Part shown: positions 691 through 60,010 of the stretch, piece after piece | How the letters are laid out: every line of letters begins with the position of its first letter | Position numbering within the stretch: the stretch's first letter is position 1 | From: Escherichia phage nithesis | Reading direction: 5' to 3' (one strand) | Sequence record: PV252060.1 | Length of the DNA stretch: 64,000 bases | Translations under genes and position numbers: made by a program | The notes under the pieces: model-generated | The model's database searches: none | What the model was told of the DNA's origin: nothing | The model's input: the letters and a program-made list of their open reading frames with translations, nothing else

Positions 691-2272
691 GTTAATTAAA
701 CAGGAACTAGATGAATGGCTAGACCAGGTGGATTATTCCCATCTTAATTCATCTAACTATGTTCCCAGTCAGTTTGCCCTTACCTTTGCCAACTTTATTA
801 AGTTGGTTAATGGCAAAGAAGGTGAGTCCAACAAAACACCCCCAGTTCACTTGAAGATGCTGGATAAGATGATTAGTCCGAACCAGTATGTAGTTAACCT
901 GTGCTTCCGTGGTGCAGGTAAGACTGCTGTGTTCATGGAATACTTTACTTTATTCCTGGCAGTGTTCGGGCATTTACCAAGTCTGGGTAAGGTAGAAGGA
1001 ATGATTTACGTATCTGACTCAATGGATAACGGTGCTAAGTCTGCACGTAAAAACATTGAGTTTCGTTACAAGAATAGTGAGTTCCTTCAGCAATGGATAC
1101 CTGAAGCTACCTTTACGGATAACCTACTGGAGTTCCGTAATGTAGAAGGGCATCGACTTGGTGTTAAGCTGTTTGGTGCTAAGACGGGTCTTCGTGGTAC
1201 GAAGATATATGGTAAGCGTCCAACACTCTGTGTACTGGATGACTTGATTAGTGATGGTGATGCTAACTCCAAGACTAGCATGGAAGCTATTAAGGATACC
1301 GTCTATAAAGGTGTGAACCATGCTCTTGACCCAACCCGTCGTAAAGTAATCTTCAATGGTACTCCCTTTAATAAGGAAGACATTATCATTGAAGCAGTCG
1401 AATCTGGTGCATGGGATGTCAACGTATGGCCTGTATGTGAGAAGTTCCCCTGTAGTAGGGAAGAATTTCAGGGTGCATGGGATGACCGTTTCTCTTACGA
1501 CTACATTAAAGCCCAATATGACATGGCAGTTAAGACCGGTAAGCTGGCAGGCTTCTATCAGGAACTTATGCTCCGTATTAGCTCAGAAGATGAGAGACTG
1601 GTTCAGGATAGTGAAATTAGATGGTATAGCAGACAGCAGCTATTAAGAATGAAGTCCTGCTACAACTATTACATTACAACCGACTTTGCTACTTCGGAGA
1701 AACAGACCAGTGACTACAGTGTCATATCAGTTTGGGCTTATAGTTCTAATGGAGATTGGTTCTGGGTTGATGGTGTGGCTAATCGTCAGCTTATGGATAA
1801 AAACTTTGATGACCTGTTTCGTCTGGTTCAAGAATACCAACCACAAAACGTTGGGGTCGAAATCACAGGGCAGCAAGGTGGATTCATTTCACTCCTTCAG
1901 AAAGAAATGATTAACCGTAATGTCTTCTTTAACTTTGCGTCCTCTGAGGGTGGTAAGCCAGGCATACGTCCTGTAACCTCTAAGCTGTCTCGCTTTAACC
2001 TGGTAGTTCCATGGTTCAAAGCTGGTAAGATGTACTTCCCAGAAGAGTTGAGAGATTCAACTATTATGGGACTGTTCATGGGCCAGATTAAACTAGCTAC
2101 CATTAATGGAATCAAAGGTAAGGATGACTGTATTGATACTATCTCCATGCTGGGTTATCTCAATCCTTGGAAACCACAAGCAGGTATGACTATGGTGGAT
2201 AACAAGGGTGACCCGATGTGGGATGACGAAGAAGAAGATAGTGTTAACCCACTACGTTCATACATTGTGTGA
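662..2272 (+). CDS. terL: terminase large subunit
   Basis: 536 aa; P-loop-like RGAGKTAV near N-terminus, acidic C-terminal nuclease-like region; position at head of structural module as in N4-like phages. Confidence 0.75.
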   Translation: MQMRTLQMSELIKQELDEWLDQVDYSHLNSSNYVPSQFALTFANFIKLVNGKEGESNKTPPVHLKMLDKMISPNQYVVNLCFRGAGKTAVFMEYFTLFLAVFGHLPSLGKVEGMIYVSDSMDNGAKSARKNIEFRYKNSEFLQQWIPEATFTDNLLEFRNVEGHRLGVKLFGAKTGLRGTKIYGKRPTLCVLDDLISDGDANSKTSMEAIKDTVYKGVNHALDPTRRKVIFNGTPFNKEDIIIEAVESGAWDVNVWPVCEKFPCSREEFQGAWDDRFSYDYIKAQYDMAVKTGKLAGFYQELMLRISSEDERLVQDSEIRWYSRQQLLRMKSCYNYYITTDFATSEKQTSDYSVISVWAYSSNGDWFWVDGVANRQLMDKNFDDLFRLVQEYQPQNVGVEITGQQGGFISLLQKEMINRNVFFNFASSEGGKPGIRPVTSKLSRFNLVVPWFKAGKMYFPEELRDSTIMGLFMGQIKLATINGIKGKDDCIDTISMLGYLNPWKPQAGMTMVDNKGDPMWDDEEEDSVNPLRSYIV

Positions 2273-2278
2273 GGAACC

Positions 2279-2989
2279 ATGCAAAAATTATCGGAAGTAT
2301 ATCGTGGCTTGGCATTAAGTACCTTGAAGGGTACTGGTGCAGTCACCGATGACAGATTAGGCATTGAACCAGATAGTAAGCCAGAGATATTGGCTGCTAT
2401 TAATGAAGGGTTAGTTCGACTGCATAGTCGTTTCCCCCTTAGAACTAATAGCTGCATTGTGGAGATGAAGGAAGGTCGTACTGATTATCCCCTCCAATCT
2501 CGGTATGCTTACTCCAGATTTACTAAGCCTACTCTTGAGATTCAATATCCATACATCATGGATGGGTTCATGAAACCTTTCCAGGATGATGTTATTAAAA
2601 TCTTAAATGTGTTTGATAACTCAGGGAATCGCCGTAGACTTAACGACGATTCAGATCCCCATGCAATTTTCACCCCACGGCCTGATACTATTCAGTGTAT
2701 GCGACCTCGACACTTCGAGGCACTTAACGTAACTTATCAAGCTAAGCACCCAATACTTACGGGTGATGAAGAACAGGAAGTTGACTTAGCAGATACACTA
2801 ATGACAGCACTTCATAACTGGGTGGGTTATCGTTACCACACTGGTTTGAATACTCCGGAAGCTAATGCTAAGGCAGCAGAGTATCTGCAAACGTATGAAA
2901 GCATCTGTGGTGAGGTTGTTGATTACGACCTGGCTAATGGAAGTATTTCAATTACCGAAACTAAATTTGAACAACGAGGATGGCGATGA
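2279..2989 (+). CDS. virion structural protein, function unknown
   Basis: 236-aa ORF between terminase and tail fibre genes; 10-nt overlap with the next gene suggests translational coupling. Confidence 0.4.
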   Translation: MQKLSEVYRGLALSTLKGTGAVTDDRLGIEPDSKPEILAAINEGLVRLHSRFPLRTNSCIVEMKEGRTDYPLQSRYAYSRFTKPTLEIQYPYIMDGFMKPFQDDVIKILNVFDNSGNRRRLNDDSDPHAIFTPRPDTIQCMRPRHFEALNVTYQAKHPILTGDEEQEVDLADTLMTALHNWVGYRYHTGLNTPEANAKAAEYLQTYESICGEVVDYDLANGSISITETKFEQRGWR

Positions 2990-5900
2990 ACGCACATACC
3001 CCCTTTGATGCAAAACAGGATTGGACCAATCCATACTGCCAGAACAGTTCCAATGACCCAATGGTAGATGCACTACTTGGTAATGCTTACCATGTGGTTC
3101 GAACTGTGTACTGCAATCTTGGTAACCTCAAACTTCTGTATGATTTCCTGAACCAGTATGGAATGGTACTTGGTGTACAGTCTGAGGCAGAACTTAAGGC
3201 TCTAACCACTGAAGCTAAGTATGCCCGTATCTACGGTTTCTCCCGTGCAGGTGACCGTCAGATAACTGACTACCTTTATGTGGAAGGTGACCGTACCGGT
3301 ATCATTCCAGATGACCCAAAGGCAACTGGTTCATGGATTACCGTTGCTACTTCTGGTTCCAATGATAGTGGTACTTCCTCCGGTGAAGGTGCTTATATTC
3401 CATGGGTATATGCAAACGGTTCTGCTACTGGTGGTGAAACTACAATCAACGTACCAGATGGTACGGTGGGTGTACCTTTTATTATTGTTAATGGCGACAT
3501 GCAGTATGTAGGTCGTGGTTTTGAGTTTAATATTGACAGCCTGTCTGTAACTCTGGCTCAACCTCTGGAAGAGGGTGATGAAGTAGTATTCCTGCTGACT
3601 GGGGTTCCTGCTGTGCCAGATAACCCTAACGTTAGTGATTGGGTTCAGATCAACTGGTTATATAACAATGGTGCTGCTGTAGGTGGCGAGCAGGTTATTG
3701 CTATTCCTTATACCTTCCAGTCTGTTCCTGCTGTGTATAAGAATGGGCTTCGTTTATATAAAGGATTAACCACTGAGTCTTATACTGCTGACCCCGATAA
3801 CCAACGTATACTTCTTACTGAGTCACTGGCAACCGATGACCGGTTGATTGTACAGCTTGGTGGCGAGTCATGGGTATTTGAAGCATCAGACAGTACACTT
3901 CAAGAAGTGGCTCGTGCAGCTAACGTAAAAGACTCTGAAGTAATCCTTAGTACGGACACCACTCAGGTACTTAATGGTAAGAAGGTAATTTATGATGTAG
4001 TTTCCCAACGTATATACTGGTTACCTACCCTACCTACCAATGTTTATATCATCTCTGTCTCAGACGGACAGCTAACATATTCTCCTGGAAATATTACTGT
4101 TACTCTGCTGGATTCCTACCAGCAGCAGAATGCCAGAGAACTATGGCGACGTAACCTTGCTGAGGCCGGTTTAACTCTTGTCGATGGTAGCTTTGAAGAA
4201 GGTGTCACGGCGAACAGTGCAACTGATGCTGTTTGGCATATCGCTGGTGGGCAGTGTTACACGTGGGGTGGCGAATTTCCTAAAACTGTAGTACCTGGCT
4301 CAACTCCAGCAACAACTGGTGGGATTAGTGATGATGCATGGTTAAGTGTTGGTGATGTAAGTTTAAGAAGTGACCTGGCTGATGATGACGGAGTTGATTT
4401 AGTTAACGGAGCAGTCAAGGATAAAGATTTTGAGCTTTACAAAAGGCAATCAATTGCAAAAAATAGATTTAATTTCGCTTTTGGGAATAAATACTCAAGA
4501 AGCTTTAATAATAATTTGCGCTTACAGTTGCAAACTTATGTAGAGAATGTATTTAACTTTGCACCAAAAGCGGTGTCACTTCCGAGTGGGCGGGTGGTAT
4601 GTATCTACACAGTGAAGGATGGTGCTAATATTGACCCAGGACAGGACGGCACACCTATGCACATTGATTACCTAATATCTGATGATAACGGTGTGAACTG
4701 GACCACTGGAACTGTTGTTAACAAAGGACCAGGATATGCCACTTCTGAAACGGTACTATTCCTAAATAATCTTGATGGATATTTGTATTGTTTCTTTACA
4801 TCAATGAAGGGGATTACTGGGTGGGGACATGCACAACAAGGAACTAACCCTGACACAACATCAACTATTGAATATGTCATATCAAAAGATGGTGGCAATA
4901 CATGGAGCACCCCTGTTGATATTACGCCATTGGTTAAACCATCTGGTGCTTACTTCTCATCAATTGCACCTACACAAGTCGGGTACATAAATGGCAAGCC
5001 TGCAATTCCTTATTATTATTTAACTCAACTATCTACAGGAATAGTTGAGGGGTATATCACAGTTGATGATAGCGGTAACTACACCTACGGTGAAGATGTC
5101 AGGAAAGACACCGATGTCGATACGCTAGGAACTTCTGGCGGCGAGATTGGATTTGGCAATTTCTATGATGGAACACCTTTTGCAATTGAGCGTGCTGCCG
5201 ACACAACAATCAAACCGTATAAAATCGCAATACAAAAGCTATTAATGCAAGATTCTAGTGGAAAGTGGGTTGTAAAAGGACAGTTCCCTACCACTAACTG
5301 TATGGCGTCGTTCTTACGCGTTGGCCCTGATTATGGTTTTGATAAGGATTATCTCTTTGTTATCGCACCTGTTGGTCAATCAGGTAATTATGAAGGACGT
5401 GCAAACATTAGAGTATTCGACTGCTCTGACGATTTTAGCAATCCTATTGATCGCGGCATGATAACAGACACAAATGCTTTGGAGGCAGGTTACAGTTCAA
5501 CCGTGCTTCTATCTTCTGGTTCATTTATGAGTATGTGGAACGGTAGACAGTGGACGATTAGCAATTCAATTTACACTATTAACAGGCTTGCGGGCAACGC
5601 AATTATCCCTGTCCCGTTTTGTGGCACTATTAAAATTGTTGACATTAGAAAGACTTTTGCACCCGATTTAAGAACCAACGAGCGAGTGATTGGTCTTGCT
5701 GACGGCAAAGAATATACATGGAACGGTTCATCATTTGTGCTTGGTATTTCGTCACCAACGAAAACGCTAACAACTGAAACAACTACATTAGATGCCAACT
5801 CTTGCGACGTATTTTATCTCGACGCTGGAAGTAATGGGTCAGTGATAACGTCAATCACTGGTGGATATATCGGACAAAGGATATCAATACTTCCGTTATC

Positions 5901-13547: not shown

Positions 13548-14768
13548 ATGACTACGGAAGCTGCAACCACAGCTTCCGACATTCTCGCAATGTCGGATGA
13601 TGAGATTCTGAATATGGAAGCCCCAGCAATTGTTGCTGAGGAAGAAACTTCCACTCAGAACAACCCAGAAACCAACGGCGTACAGACTCCTGATGAAGAA
13701 GTTGACACCTCTGCTGTTGAAGACCTACCAACCGAAGAAACCTCCCCCGAAACTGAACCAGTTGAAGATGATTCAGCAAATTCTTTAACTTCTGATAAAG
13801 TTGATGATAAAGTTGTTGACACAGAAGTTGATAGTAACGGCAAGCCGATTACTAAAGCTGAACCTTCTACTGCTGAACCAGGCCAGGAACAGAAAGAAGA
13901 AGGCAAACAGTCTGAAGGTCTGCCTGCTGACTTCAACTATAAGGAAGGTTATGAGAAGTTGATGGCTCCTTTTAAAGCTAACGGCAAAATGATTACTCCC
14001 CGTTCACCGGAGGAGGCCATTAGCCTGATGCAGATGGGTGCTAACTATACTCGTAAGATGCAAGAACTTCAGCCGTACCGTAAGGTAATGCTGATGCTAC
14101 AAAACAACGGTTTAATGGATGAGGAAAAACTTTCTTTCCTGATTGACCTGGATAAGAAGAATCCTGAAGCCATTAAAAAGTTGTTGAAAGACTCTGGTAC
14201 AGATCCTCTGGACTTTAATCCAGAAGAGGAGATTAACTACCAGGGTGGCAAACACCGTGTTACAGACACCGAAGCAGATTTTGCAACCGAAATTGACGAC
14301 TTAAAGTCTACTCAAGAAGGACAAGCTACATTAGGTGTTATTAGCTCGACATGGGATGCTGCCAGTAAAGATGCTCTTTATCAGAATCGTGGCTTACTCC
14401 ACACCATTCACGAACAGCGTGAGAATGGTATTTATGACACCATTGCTAACGAAGTGAATCGTCTTCAGGTGTTAGGTCAGATTCCGGTAGGTACTCCGTT
14501 TATTCAGGCTTATAACTACGTTGGTAACCTCCTTGCACAACAGGGAGCATTTAACCAAGTGGCTAAGCCTGAACCGGTACAAGCAGTTAAACCAGCAGTT
14601 CAGCCGGTAGTGCGTATAGCACAACCTAAGCAGACTCTGGCTAACAATGAGCAAGCTAAAGCAGCTTCCCTTAATCGGGCTGCTACACGTAAAGCAACAC
14701 CTATTGTAAACCCACTCGCTATGAGTGATGAAGATTTCGCTAAACTCCCAGTACCGGGTAGTCTTTAA
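13548..14768 (+). CDS. putative scaffolding protein
   Basis: 406 aa; strongly acidic low-complexity N-terminal region (E/D/T/P-rich); immediately upstream of major capsid gene. Confidence 0.4.
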   Translation: MTTEAATTASDILAMSDDEILNMEAPAIVAEEETSTQNNPETNGVQTPDEEVDTSAVEDLPTEETSPETEPVEDDSANSLTSDKVDDKVVDTEVDSNGKPITKAEPSTAEPGQEQKEEGKQSEGLPADFNYKEGYEKLMAPFKANGKMITPRSPEEAISLMQMGANYTRKMQELQPYRKVMLMLQNNGLMDEEKLSFLIDLDKKNPEAIKKLLKDSGTDPLDFNPEEEINYQGGKHRVTDTEADFATEIDDLKSTQEGQATLGVISSTWDAASKDALYQNRGLLHTIHEQRENGIYDTIANEVNRLQVLGQIPVGTPFIQAYNYVGNLLAQQGAFNQVAKPEPVQAVKPAVQPVVRIAQPKQTLANNEQAKAASLNRAATRKATPIVNPLAMSDEDFAKLPVPGSL

Positions 14769-56907: not shown

Positions 56908-57414
56908 TTATTTACTGCTTCTTGCAGCTACTGGTTTGTTTTCCTGATTCTGATACTTGCCATTGTAATTAGCAGGTTCTTGAACCAGATGAAATAATAC
57001 TTGAGCTATCCCAGCACCAGCCGGGATATGCAATTTCTTGCGACCATTATAGACCAGTTCAAGAGTCAAATACCCTTTCCATCCCGGTTCTATTACGGTA
57101 TTGAACACAGATAATGCACGTCTTGCCCACGTAGACTTATCGTGAACGATGGCTACGCAGGATGGTGACATGTTGAACTTCTCAATTGCTGAAGCCAATG
57201 TGAACTTACCGAGATGGCGTGATACTTGATCTCCATCAACGACCTTCACCATTGGAATCAACCCAAATAAGCGATAAAAGGTGATATCTTGTTTGATACG
57301 AATATCGTAACCAGCTTCACCTAATCCATAGCTTACACCGTGTTCGGATACCTTATGGTCTGGAACATCCAGCAATTGGGATGAACGATAGAGAGAATTA
57401 CCATTAACAACCAT
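56908..57414 (-). CDS. dcd: dCTP deaminase / dUTPase-superfamily protein
   Basis: 168 aa; GYDIRI, NTVIEPGWKGYLTLEL and GAGIAQ resemble conserved dCTP deaminase/dUTPase motifs. Confidence 0.55.
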   Translation of the reverse strand: MVVNGNSLYRSSQLLDVPDHKVSEHGVSYGLGEAGYDIRIKQDITFYRLFGLIPMVKVVDGDQVSRHLGKFTLASAIEKFNMSPSCVAIVHDKSTWARRALSVFNTVIEPGWKGYLTLELVYNGRKKLHIPAGAGIAQVLFHLVQEPANYNGKYQNQENKPVAARSSK

Positions 57415-58589
57415 TATTTCATTCCTTTAGGGATATGAACTACCTCCCCAAAAGGTACGGTAGCATTGGGATTATTCAGAACACACCAGATGATTGGAAT
57501 ATCAAATGGCAATTCTTCCATAGGGCGAACATACATATCAGAGAATATGATTGCAGCGGTTGGCTTATTCTTAATAATCCACTCGCGTACTGGTTCAAGG
57601 TTTGTACCACCACGACCGGTAATCTTAATCTCTTCAAAAGTATCTTCTTCAGTGATGTCTATTTCTTCCTGGATAATATCGTCGAAGGTAATTAGGGACA
57701 TCTTCTTAGGATTGAACTGGCTCTTAACGTAAGCAACCTCTGAGTTAAAACGCAGAGAGTCAGCACTACTAATAGAACCAGATACATCCTCAAAGTAGGC
57801 TAAGTGACGTAGACGTCCTTCATCATCTTCCAAGGAAGGTAGATAAATATCTGTGTAACGACGGTTAGGTCTGGCCCACGTATAGTGAGTGTCATCAATG
57901 TCGGTAAAGAAGTTCATGAGAACTTCCTGCCATGGAACCACTGGTTTAAGGAATTGGGTAATAACCTCTTCCATACGTCCAGCACCTTTACCGGGCATCT
58001 GTCCACCGGCCATTTTCTGGCTTTGCATTGAACGTACTACGTTGTTGACGACAGCACCCTGGGACTGCCCCGAAGTGGGGGATTTCATGTCGCCAGCAAG
58101 ACCTGCTCCAGCACCCCCTGACGGCTTCTGCCTTTTCTGGGGGTTCTTCATCAGGTCATCGTAGATGTCTTCTTCGACCCATCCCTTATATTTATGGTCT
58201 TTGCAAATACCTTCATTGATACCAGTGAACTTGTAACCATCTTCTTCTAACTGAAGGTTAATGAAGTGGTCACATGCCTGGTTCCAGATTTCCGGGTCAC
58301 GGCTTCCACGACGAATGTCATGTAGATATGCCACATGCCAGAGTTCGTGCATTAATACTGTTTCTCTTGCATCTGGACACATCCAGATAAAGAAATCAGG
58401 ATTGAAATGGAGTTCTATCCCATCAGTACATGCAGTGGGACAATCCTCACGTTTCCATGAGAATTTAAGACTACAAAGTAATGAACCAAAGAACGCAGCA
58501 GACTTGCCTAGGAAAGCCTGAGCCTGAATACGGTCATACTCACGCATGAGTTGTTCATCACTAAGTGTGTGCTGAGGAAATTGGTTCAT
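57414..58589 (-). CDS. VWA-domain protein with N-terminal HExxH metallopeptidase-like domain (DUF2201-like)
   Basis: HELWH zinc-binding-type motif in N-terminal half; MIDAS-like DVSGSIS motif in C-terminal half; adjacent to AAA+ ATPase gene; start moved to internal Met. Confidence 0.5.
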   Translation of the reverse strand: MNQFPQHTLSDEQLMREYDRIQAQAFLGKSAAFFGSLLCSLKFSWKREDCPTACTDGIELHFNPDFFIWMCPDARETVLMHELWHVAYLHDIRRGSRDPEIWNQACDHFINLQLEEDGYKFTGINEGICKDHKYKGWVEEDIYDDLMKNPQKRQKPSGGAGAGLAGDMKSPTSGQSQGAVVNNVVRSMQSQKMAGGQMPGKGAGRMEEVITQFLKPVVPWQEVLMNFFTDIDDTHYTWARPNRRYTDIYLPSLEDDEGRLRHLAYFEDVSGSISSADSLRFNSEVAYVKSQFNPKKMSLITFDDIIQEEIDITEEDTFEEIKITGRGGTNLEPVREWIIKNKPTAAIIFSDMYVRPMEELPFDIPIIWCVLNNPNATVPFGEVVHIPKGMK

Positions 58590-58593
58590 TGTT

Positions 58594-59646
58594 TTATCCG
58601 TGAATGTAGCGAGAGATATTAGCAGCAGCCTTACGCCATTCAGGAGTAGCCTGAAGATCTGGTAATGCATTGCCTACTGTACGGAAGTACAGAATCTTAT
58701 GGGTGAACGTTCTAAAACGTTCAATGTACTGAAGAACATCAACAAAGTTCTCTTCAGTAGTCTTGTTAGCCAAATGGTTAACAGTAGCCCAACACAGGTT
58801 GTTATCATCAGGTAGTGCACAGCCCAGAGGGTCTTTGACTACCTTCTCAATCGTAATTATACGATTGTATACCTGAGTAAACTGAACAAATTCTGTAGCC
58901 TTACCAGCAGTAACGTGTCCTGCATAGTAGATAGAATCTTCATCAGGAAGAGCACCTTCTGGTAAGTTCTTGAGGTCTTTGTTAACAAAGTCCCAGGTAC
59001 GAGGGCAACAGAACGTTTTGTTCTTATGTGCTGGGTCGAAGTCATGCAGATAACCAGGGTTAGCATGTAAGAATGCAACCAGACGTTCATCCCATTGCTG
59101 AGGAATCATTACGTCTTCAACAAAGATGTCGAAGTTAAGTTCCATTTCAAAGTGAACCACACGAGACTGCATTGCAGTACCTAATGGGTTAACAATGGCA
59201 CGGTCAGTAGCTTTATTACCTGCACAGACAATCATCACATTAGGATGAAGTTTTTTCTGACCAGTCATACGGTCTAGAATCAGTTTATATGCAGCAGCTA
59301 CTACTTCTTTCTTAGCTGAGTTGAACTCATCAAGGAATAAGAGCCAGCCATTATACCCTTCTGGTAATTCATCTCCCTCAATTGGGAATAAGTCAGCGAA
59401 TGGAATAAACTCTGCACGGTCACCATTACGGAATGGTAAACCAGACAGGTCTTCCGGGGCAGAAGTAGACAGACGATGGTCTATCAGTTTCATACCAAAT
59501 TCTTCTGCAATAGAACGAATGATTGCAGATTTACCCATACCAGGTGATGAAGTCAGGAACGGTACGTTACCTGCTTTCAAAGCACGGATAATAAAGTTAC
59601 GAGCTTGACGTGAATTACATACGGTCAAGGAGTCGATGCTTGTCAT
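58594..59646 (-). CDS. AAA+ ATPase (MoxR/AAA_5-like)
   Basis: 350 aa; Walker A SPGMGKSAI, Walker B LFLDEFN, sensor-like VCAGNKATD. Confidence 0.6.
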   Translation of the reverse strand: MTSIDSLTVCNSRQARNFIIRALKAGNVPFLTSSPGMGKSAIIRSIAEEFGMKLIDHRLSTSAPEDLSGLPFRNGDRAEFIPFADLFPIEGDELPEGYNGWLLFLDEFNSAKKEVVAAAYKLILDRMTGQKKLHPNVMIVCAGNKATDRAIVNPLGTAMQSRVVHFEMELNFDIFVEDVMIPQQWDERLVAFLHANPGYLHDFDPAHKNKTFCCPRTWDFVNKDLKNLPEGALPDEDSIYYAGHVTAGKATEFVQFTQVYNRIITIEKVVKDPLGCALPDDNNLCWATVNHLANKTTEENFVDVLQYIERFRTFTHKILYFRTVGNALPDLQATPEWRKAAANISRYIHG

Positions 59647-59680: not shown

Positions 59681-60010
59681 TTAAGATTTGGTGCAGGGAT
59701 ATGCCTTGTGTACTGAGTACACAACAATTTGAGATGTATTCTTCATCTTGAGGATTGCAGAATCATAAATAACTACTTTGGCAATCTTAGGCAGAATGAC
59801 AGAATACTTAATACCTTCAGGAACACAGTTATTTGTACTCTCGATGTAAGAGATCATACTGCCCATGAAGAATCCTTGTCCGAACGCATCACGAGTGTCA
59901 TCCAGATAGGCCTGAGCACCTTCCAGAATTGGTTCTGGTTCAATTGCTTGTGCATTTGGAACCAAAGCTATCAGTGCAGCTACTGCAATACCTTTAAGTA
60001 AAGTTTTCAT
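59681..60010 (-). CDS. small secreted/periplasmic protein
   Basis: 109 aa with classical signal peptide MKTLLKGIAVAALIALVPNAQA. Confidence 0.4.
   Translation of the reverse strand: MKTLLKGIAVAALIALVPNAQAIEPEPILEGAQAYLDDTRDAFGQGFFMGSMISYIESTNNCVPEGIKYSVILPKIAKVVIYDSAILKMKNTSQIVVYSVHKAYPCTKS

Follow-up and report, generated by a model that had tools for sequence, protein, structure and literature searches.

We analysed a 64,000-nucleotide stretch of Escherichia phage nithesis DNA (record PV252060.1), hereafter the window, and focused on two neighbouring genes. One encodes an AAA+ ATPase and the other a protein that combines a predicted zincin metallopeptidase domain with a VWA domain (the peptidase-VWA protein). 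The initial annotation, made from the letters and a list of open reading frames (ORFs), had proposed that adjacent genes within 57414-59646 encode a Walker A/B AAA+ ATPase of MoxR-like type and a protein with both an HExxH and a MIDAS-like DxSGS motif. Two minus-strand ORFs do lie there and the outer coordinates are right (Table 1). What that annotation lacked was a name: the pair consists of the orthologues of gp24 and gp25 of phage N4, a known and catalogued core module of the N4-like phages.

An AAA+ ATPase and a predicted metallopeptidase-VWA protein

The ATPase matched the Pfam family AAA (PF00004; E 6.8e-6, 27 bits against a cutoff of 21.2) and PHROG 1297 'ATPase' (E 1.2e-133), and its Walker A and B motifs can be read directly from the translation. 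Its score against Pfam AAA_5 was 17 bits, below the cutoff of 22, which was reached by the orthologue in the T4-like cyanophage S-TIM66 and by the homologue on a contig of an archaeal metagenome-assembled genome (MAG). A search of NCBIfam gave no matches for the pair. Profile searches had been set beforehand as the test that could refute the initial annotation; they supported both the AAA+ and the VWA/metallopeptidase assignments, with AAA_5 itself remaining below threshold.

When the ATPase was aligned with 32 homologues (51-89% identity), the residues G38-K39-S40 of Walker A, D106-E107 of Walker B, N144 of the sensor-1 motif AGN (59215-59223) and R162 of the motif QSR (59161-59169) were all invariant. 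R162 is a candidate arginine finger because of its position after alpha4. Residues 56-71 (DHRLSTSxPxDxxGLP) were mostly invariant among the 32 relatives, and this segment is a candidate pore or partner-contact loop.

The confident AlphaFold model of the ATPase (pLDDT 86, pTM 0.83) has an AAA+ core in which an insert occupies the helix-2 position and a beta-hairpin precedes sensor 1. Its C-terminal half is all helical, and the insert, at residues 59-100, has low pLDDT. In a fold search the nearest solved structures were dynein and midasin, followed by CbbQ and NorQ. A sequence search of solved proteins returned the AAA modules of midasin as its sole matches (E 2.7e-4). 'MoxR-like' is a fair description of the ATPase, by a margin that is not large and with the curated AAA_5 model missed.

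The second protein matched Pfam DUF2201_N, 'putative metallopeptidase' (E 4.4e-57, residues 17-253), and Pfam DUF2201, 'VWA-like' (E 1.9e-34, residues 263-386). Together the two families span residues 17-386 of 391. For both proteins of the pair the match scores lie well outside what chance would produce. The ORF list gave this protein 418 aa, with an ATG at 58670 inside the ATPase gene, and the records of close relatives use a longer frame of 419 aa that overlaps the ATPase gene by 77 nt. Since the 32 homologues aligned and N4 gp25 begin at the equivalent residue, the alignment supports the Met at 58589 as the probable start, which gives a predicted protein of 391 aa.

The claim that HExxH and MIDAS-like motifs occur in one protein held up well. 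Judged by its motifs, the protein carries a complete HExxH zincin signature together with a complete MIDAS (DxSxS, Thr, Asp). H81, E82, H85, D107, D268, S270, G271, S272, T329 and D351 were invariant in 32 diverse relatives. The same ten residues were invariant in a nine-sequence alignment that adds N4, LUZ7, S-TIM66, Bacillus phage G, two Vequintavirinae, the archaeal-MAG homologue and a copy from Mesorhizobium, with identity down to 24%; the homologues from S-TIM66, phage G, the two Vequintavirinae and the archaeal MAG share 24-31% identity with the window protein. Candidates for the third zincin ligand are the invariant D107 and the residue at position 90 (H/D90).

The model of the peptidase-VWA protein (pLDDT 77.5, pTM 0.55) places a small sheet of strands at residues 42-62, a helix with the HExxH motif at 72-87, a helix with D107 at 99-116 and then the VWA domain. 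A Gly-rich linker, at about residues 150-260, is poorly predicted. The VWA domain has the VWA (Rossmann-like) fold, and it dominated the matches of the fold search. The N-terminal domain gave weak, scattered Pfam matches to M91, SprT-like, M48 and M56.

The two genes are separated by four nucleotides, and packing this tight is compatible with coupled translation. On the other side of the peptidase-VWA gene, the last base of its stop codon is the first base of the dCTP deaminase gene.

Table 1. Positions of the gene pair, its predicted functional motifs and the adjoining dCTP deaminase gene in the window
Feature	Position	Strand	Basis or detail
AAA+ ATPase gene, 350 aa, N4 gp24 orthologue, MoxR/dynein/midasin-clade fold	58594..59646	-	
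Walker A / P-loop SSPGMGKS; G38-K39-S40 invariant	59527..59550	-	alignment, sequence reading
DHRLSTSAPEDLSGLP, near-invariant 16-residue segment (DHRLSTSxPxDxxGLP), beta2-beta3, helix-2 insert position	59434..59481	-	
Walker B LLFLDE; D106-E107 invariant	59326..59343	-	alignment, sequence reading
Sensor-1 AGN (N144 invariant) to QSR (R162 invariant)	59161..59223	-	alignment, model, sequence reading
4-nt spacer, ATPase stop TAA (58596-58594) to peptidase-VWA ATG (58589-58587)	58590..58593	-	
Predicted zincin metallopeptidase + VWA (MIDAS) gene, 391 aa, N4 gp25 orthologue	57414..58589	-	
HELWH, predicted HExxH zinc-binding/catalytic motif; H81, E82, H85	58335..58349	-	alignments
ACD motif; D107 invariant, candidate third metal ligand or catalytic residue	58269..58277	-	alignments
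MIDAS DVSGS (D268-x-S270-G-S272), invariant	57774..57788	-	alignments
Remaining MIDAS residues, both invariant	57537..57611	-	GGT (T329) 57603-57611; SD (D351) 57537-57542
dCTP deaminase gene, N4 gp26 orthologue (context, outside the pair)	56908..57414	-	family match and N4 synteny

A core pair of the N4-like middle block and its relatives

The window belongs to Gamaleyavirus (G7C-like/ECBP1-like, Schitoviridae) and derives from an N4-like coliphage. Over the 2.2-kb pair region its DNA is 93-95% identical to some 55 sequenced Gamaleyavirus coliphages and Shigella phages, and the pair proteins are 95-98% identical to their closest published copies. Identity to N4 gp24 and gp25 is 61%, over 100% and 98% of the query. 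The synteny is also that of N4, where gp24 and gp25 are followed by gp26 (dCTP deaminase), gp30 (ThyX) and gp33/34 (rIIA/B); order, neighbours and the strand shared with the RNAPII and replication genes are all the same. The spacer between the two genes is 168 nt in N4 against 4 nt in the window, a difference with no evident functional consequence. More distant N4-like phages keep 52% identity for both the ATPase and the peptidase-VWA protein (JWDelta) or 40% and 29% (LUZ7). PMC4193335 counts gp24 and gp25 among the 14 core genes of N4-like phages and gives their function as 'unknown' or 'vWFA domain', as does PMC2784036.

The plus strand of the window carries the terminase, portal and major head protein genes and an ORF of 3,590 aa for the virion RNA polymerase. 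By family match, the minus strand carries RNAP2, rIIA/rIIB, ThyX and dCTP deaminase, and it also has ORFs matching the N4 helicase, DNA polymerase and primase. The pair thus shares strand and block with RNAPII and the replication genes, and the structural genes lie on the opposite strand. Matches to sigma70-like promoters are depleted between 56000 and 64000 (7 against 19.3 +/- 5.0 expected), and the transcription unit that holds the pair is flanked by minus-strand terminator-like hairpins (62258-62235, 62027-62008 and 56280-56258). Promoter depletion and bracketing hairpins are consistent with transcription by the phage RNAPII rather than by the host polymerase. For N4, gp24 and gp25 are described as middle transcripts (PMC4193335). 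LUZ7's middle genes are mostly replicative (PMC9163698), and in that phage the pair adjoins the helicase and DNA polymerase genes.

Two further ORFs of the window deserve mention for their labels. Directly upstream of the ATPase gene, at 59681-60010 on the minus strand, lies a 109-aa ORF with a signal-peptide-like N-terminus; its counterpart in phage 24-32N is labelled 'tai4 protein' (type VI amidase immunity), its sole match was PHROG 11132 (unknown function), and it matched no Pfam family. On the plus strand, at 13548-14768, a gp57-like gene lies just upstream of the gene for the major head protein; PHROGs and RefSeq call it 'tail length tape measure protein', here in a short-tailed podovirus. 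From its position we would guess that the product could be a scaffolding protein.

The initial annotation had stated that this pairing recurs in phages and bacteria. For phages this was amply borne out: tblastn hits to the peptidase-VWA protein came from 737 phage records and those to the ATPase from 828, and the host-genus counts run nearly in parallel. The hosts include alpha-, beta- and gamma-proteobacteria, cyanobacteria and Bacillus, and the pair occurs across podo-, myo- and jumbo-type virions with unrelated tails, several jumbo phages among them. For bacteria the support is indirect: a remark in the N4 record ('similar to S. coel. protein 1/2'), the archaeal-MAG contig, where an AAA_5 gene adjoins a DUF2201 gene, and the size of the family. 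A profile search of 1.84 billion representative proteins returned 21,617 clusters (at 50% identity), 5,318 of them at E <= 1e-30. The genes next to the archaeal pair had no Pfam or PHROG matches. The conservation of the pair is about that of the helicase, SSB and RNAP2, and much above that of rIIA/rIIB.

The arrangement of the two genes varies outside the Schitoviridae. They are adjacent or nearly so in N4, JWDelta, LUZ7, S-TIM66 and the archaeal contig, and the order ATPase, peptidase-VWA protein, dCTP deaminase is kept in N4, JWDelta and the Mesorhizobium contig described below. Vequintavirinae have both genes, set apart from each other by a few kb in the relatives with coordinates. In Bacillus phage G they are non-adjacent, the ATPase being gp566 and the peptidase-VWA protein gp576; we rejected gp579 of this phage, a candidate for the ATPase partner, as unrelated. 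The T4-like cyanophages S-TIM66 and S-TIM5 also carry homologues. In S-TIM66 (locus 1990-4625) the order is Hsp20, MoxR-like ATPase, DUF2201 protein, then a virion structural protein gene and ThyX; the homology of its ATPase is clear-cut (hhalign E 8e-40 over 273 columns). ThyX lies near the pair in both N4-like phages and S-TIM66, and the recurrent neighbours overall are genes for dCTP deaminase, ThyX, thymidylate kinase, MazG, helicase and DNA polymerase.

Homologues also turned up in two bacterial assemblies. A 727-kb contig of Mesorhizobium yinganensis CN2-181 carries at 434974-448110 an N4-like middle block (ATPase, DUF2201 protein, dCTP deaminase ... ThyX), whose DUF2201 protein is 46% identical to the window protein. 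A 297-kb contig of a Roseococcus MAG carries a DUF2201 homologue with 50% identity. N4-like phages are regarded as strictly virulent. The two contigs suggest an integrated N4-like element, and they may be assembly artefacts.

Homing elements and misleading labels in relatives

Mobile elements have entered both genes in relatives of the window. In Shigella phage pSb-1 the ATPase gene is split inside the DHRLSTS...GLP motif by an insert (3531-4403 of locus L002) that is about 870 nt long and contains an HNH ORF; the breakpoint is at the equivalent of window 59443/59447. This insert overlaps a weak match to the Group I intron family (RF00028, 26.8 bits, E 0.0017) that is below the Rfam threshold, and the ATPase exons stand in GenBank as separate small genes. 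Phages Bp4 (2643-3159 of locus L003) and G7C (NC_015933.1, 10910-11393) have a free-standing HNH endonuclease gene where the ATPase and peptidase-VWA genes meet, at a site equivalent to window 58589-58594. Two metagenomic homologues of the peptidase-VWA protein, P0251 (701 aa) and P0244 (519 aa), contain inteins, recognised by matches to Pfam Intein_splicing (4.7e-11) and Vint/Hint (1.2e-5). These inteins, of about 300 and 150 aa, sit between A105 and C106 of the ACD motif, beside the invariant D107. The window pair itself has neither an intron-like insert nor a free-standing HNH gene nor inteins. Homing elements typically target conserved sites of important phage genes. Their presence at the most conserved motifs of both genes is thus an indirect sign of functional importance.

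Several labels attached to the pair in databases did not survive inspection. We rejected 'HNH endonuclease', which the peptidase-VWA protein bears in PHROG 1314 and in many RefSeq records, among them gp25 of N4 (NC_008720.1), because Pfam found no HNH domain and the two DUF2201 models take up the whole protein. The separate HNH ORFs beside or inside the pair genes in G7C, Bp4 and pSb-1 are a likely source of this wrong label. The label 'anti-sigma factor', found among Vequintavirus relatives, is unsupported: the upstream gene that bears this name lacks any Pfam domain and shows no relationship to the ATPase (hhalign probability 0.1%), the true ATPase homologue lying elsewhere in the genome. 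Unsupported as well is the label 'virion RNA polymerase' that one Klebsiella phage record gives to the ATPase.

A proposed ATP-driven remodelling and cleavage machine

We consider it somewhat more probable than the contrary that the pair forms a two-component, ATP-driven machine for protein remodelling and cleavage, guided by an adaptor, assisted by ATP and made in the middle (replication) phase. The MoxR-type ATPase would assemble into a ring. The peptidase-VWA protein would serve as the adaptor, its C-terminal VWA domain docking on the ATPase in the manner of CbbO on CbbQ, NorD on NorQ and the MIDAS domain on the midasin ring. The MIDAS metal ion would then capture an Asp or Glu side chain of the target protein, ATP hydrolysis would remodel the target, and the fused N-terminal HExxH zincin domain would cut it. 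The behaviour of MoxR-VWA systems from which we draw these steps (CbbQ-CbbO, NorQ-NorD, RavA-ViaA and midasin) is summarised in PMC7159879.

The genes are linked, their ATPase, zincin and MIDAS sites are intact and deeply conserved, the ATPase has a MoxR/midasin-like fold, and the pair lies in the middle block. The Glu of HExxH is the general base of zincins. That this Glu and both His residues are invariant over very deep divergence argues for catalysis rather than mere metal binding.

Several points weigh against the proposed machine. That the adaptor binds the ATPase, that a ring forms and that the second protein acts as a protease are all things we infer. The zincin fold assignment draws on the Pfam match, the motif and a moderately confident model, and no solved relative of this domain was found in the PDB at E <= 10, either by phmmer with the full-length protein or by hmmsearch with a profile of residues 1-160. 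To our knowledge, CbbQO and NorQD, the best-studied MoxR-VWA systems, involve no proteolysis. The literature searched (DUF2201, N4 gp24/gp25, phage and cyanophage MoxR, LUZ7, anti-defence, CRISPRi-ART, HIDEN-SEQ and transposon screens) yielded no experiments on any member of the pair and no essentiality data for N4-like phages, which agrees with the statement of the initial annotation that a role in infection is not established.

Comparison with CbbQ-CbbO and NorQ-NorD leads to a different explanation. These systems likewise join a MoxR ATPase of the 'CGN' subfamily to a VWA/MIDAS adaptor, at 13-16% sequence identity. However, CbbO and NorD have no peptidase domain, CbbQO and NorQD remodel or metallate enzymes with no cleavage, and about residues 230-350 of the phage ATPase form an additional helical region at the C-terminus. 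The phage pair might similarly work without proteolysis, as an activase or metallochaperone whose client is an enzyme of the phage or the host, such as one of nucleotide metabolism or replication, with HExxH only as a metal- or partner-binding module. The parallels would be CbbQO acting on Rubisco, NorQD on nitric-oxide reductase, and CobST. CbbQ and NorQ are indeed the closest characterised ATPase folds after dynein and midasin, and a cyanophage MoxR ATPase, S-CREM1 ORF198, has been published as a member of the CbbQ/GvpN/NorQ subfamily (PMC9964418). The genes for nucleotide metabolism and replication that recur near the pair fit such a role, but this signal may reflect shared middle-phase expression only, and the catalytic Glu of HExxH is invariant.

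A variant of this explanation has the pair clear protein roadblocks bound to DNA, by analogy with Wss1/Spartan acting with Cdc48/p97. Both that system and FtsH follow the same logic of an AAA+ unfoldase or remodeller coupled to a zincin. The likeness is an analogy only: neither has VWA/MIDAS recognition or significant sequence similarity to the pair, and FtsH, of the classical AAA clade, holds both modules in one membrane-anchored chain. One N-terminal domain gave a weak SprT-like match (E 0.11), and Pfam detected no DNA-binding domain. Activase and roadblock clearance, taken together, strike us as highly improbable.

The same two-protein architecture has been described for group 2.2 jumbo phages, where a MoxR-type ATPase goes with a vWA protein whose N-terminal domain is a zincin (Iyer et al. 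2021, PMC7824862), a pair termed 'chaperone-cochaperone' there. A role in virion assembly with proteolytic processing was predicted for it (PMC7824862). By the same token the window pair could be a virion-assembly chaperone and maturation protease, the MoxR-vWA part folding or assembling structural proteins and the zincin trimming them. The Acidianus two-tailed virus also encodes a MoxR protein (p618) and a VWA protein (p892), with an experimentally supported chaperone role (cited in PMC7824862 and PMC7159879) that suggests assembly as well. Here the comparison is by description, and these proteins come from an archaeal virus with extracellular tail development and have no peptidase domain. 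The S-TIM66 pair stands beside the genes for the Hsp20 chaperone and a virion structural protein, and PHROGs recognised no prohead protease in the late module of the window, which lends weak support.

Other evidence points away from assembly. The likeness to the group 2.2 pair is one of architecture: those phages are jumbo myoviruses, whereas the window comes from a 72-kb podovirus with the pair in the middle-gene block. Every N4-like genome examined has the pair in this middle/replication block, with the structural genes on the other strand, and the pair also occurs in podo-, myo- and jumbo-type virions whose tails are unrelated. T4-like cyanophages, which carry the pair too, would already have a prohead protease. 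The excerpted table of RPP1/RLP1 virion proteins identified by mass spectrometry lists no gp24/gp25 homologues (PMC4193335). We regard an assembly role as unlikely.

Midasin/Rea1, near which the ATPase fold falls, likewise has an AAA ring with a C-terminal MIDAS domain. It differs from the pair in that one eukaryotic chain of about 4,700-4,900 residues contains six AAA modules fused together, in the lack of a peptidase, and in acting in ribosome biogenesis.

For the proposed remodelling and cleavage machine we favour, as the target, a conserved protein rather than a variable host-defence protein; it might be a phage protein, a universal host protein or one associated with replication. A conserved client is more likely given the core-gene status of the pair, its conservation at the level of helicase, SSB and RNAP2, and its spread from alphaproteobacteria to Bacillus and cyanobacteria. 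The same observations bear on the idea of a host-takeover or counter-defence protease, in which the adaptor would capture a host regulator or defence factor and destroy it. In its favour, expression of the pair precedes the late phase, and there is weak similarity to the effector family Peptidase_M91 (3 of 20 N-terminal domains, best E 0.0057). Some phage records label relatives 'anti-sigma factor', but that label is the unsupported one dismissed above. Counter-defence genes are typically patchy and fast-evolving, whereas the pair is core and of mid-range conservation, and with so wide a range of hosts a host target would have to be near-universal. PADLOC gave no credible match: the ATPase drew a weak DolB hit (E 0.0062) in which no stretch matched, and the peptidase-VWA protein drew none. 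We find takeover or counter-defence quite unlikely.

In a more far-reaching version of the proposed machine, the pair would be the first example of a class of ATP-dependent protease that has not been described before, and N4-like and many other large virulent phages would need it for the middle phase of infection. Such a class would combine a MoxR ring, a separate adaptor and a zincin, and would choose substrates through a MIDAS-acidic-residue contact and not by threading degrons into a chamber in the manner of Clp, Lon and FtsH. We hold this extended version, as a whole, to be a tentative possibility that falls well short of even.

The pair was already known, and the window copy, near-identical to published genes, adds nothing new on its function. 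The practical yield is a corrected annotation of the second gene (not an HNH endonuclease; start codon at 58589) and a list of key residues in both proteins. Relatives of the pair are found in hundreds of sequenced phages, some of which are candidates for therapy against E. coli, Klebsiella, Pseudomonas and Achromobacter, and more than 20,000 protein clusters belong to the family. Gp24 and gp25 represent two of the 14 genes common to all N4-like phages and are still listed without a function. Finding out what the pair does would close an obvious gap in the understanding of a model phage, and might establish a new mode of coupling between an AAA+ motor and a protease.

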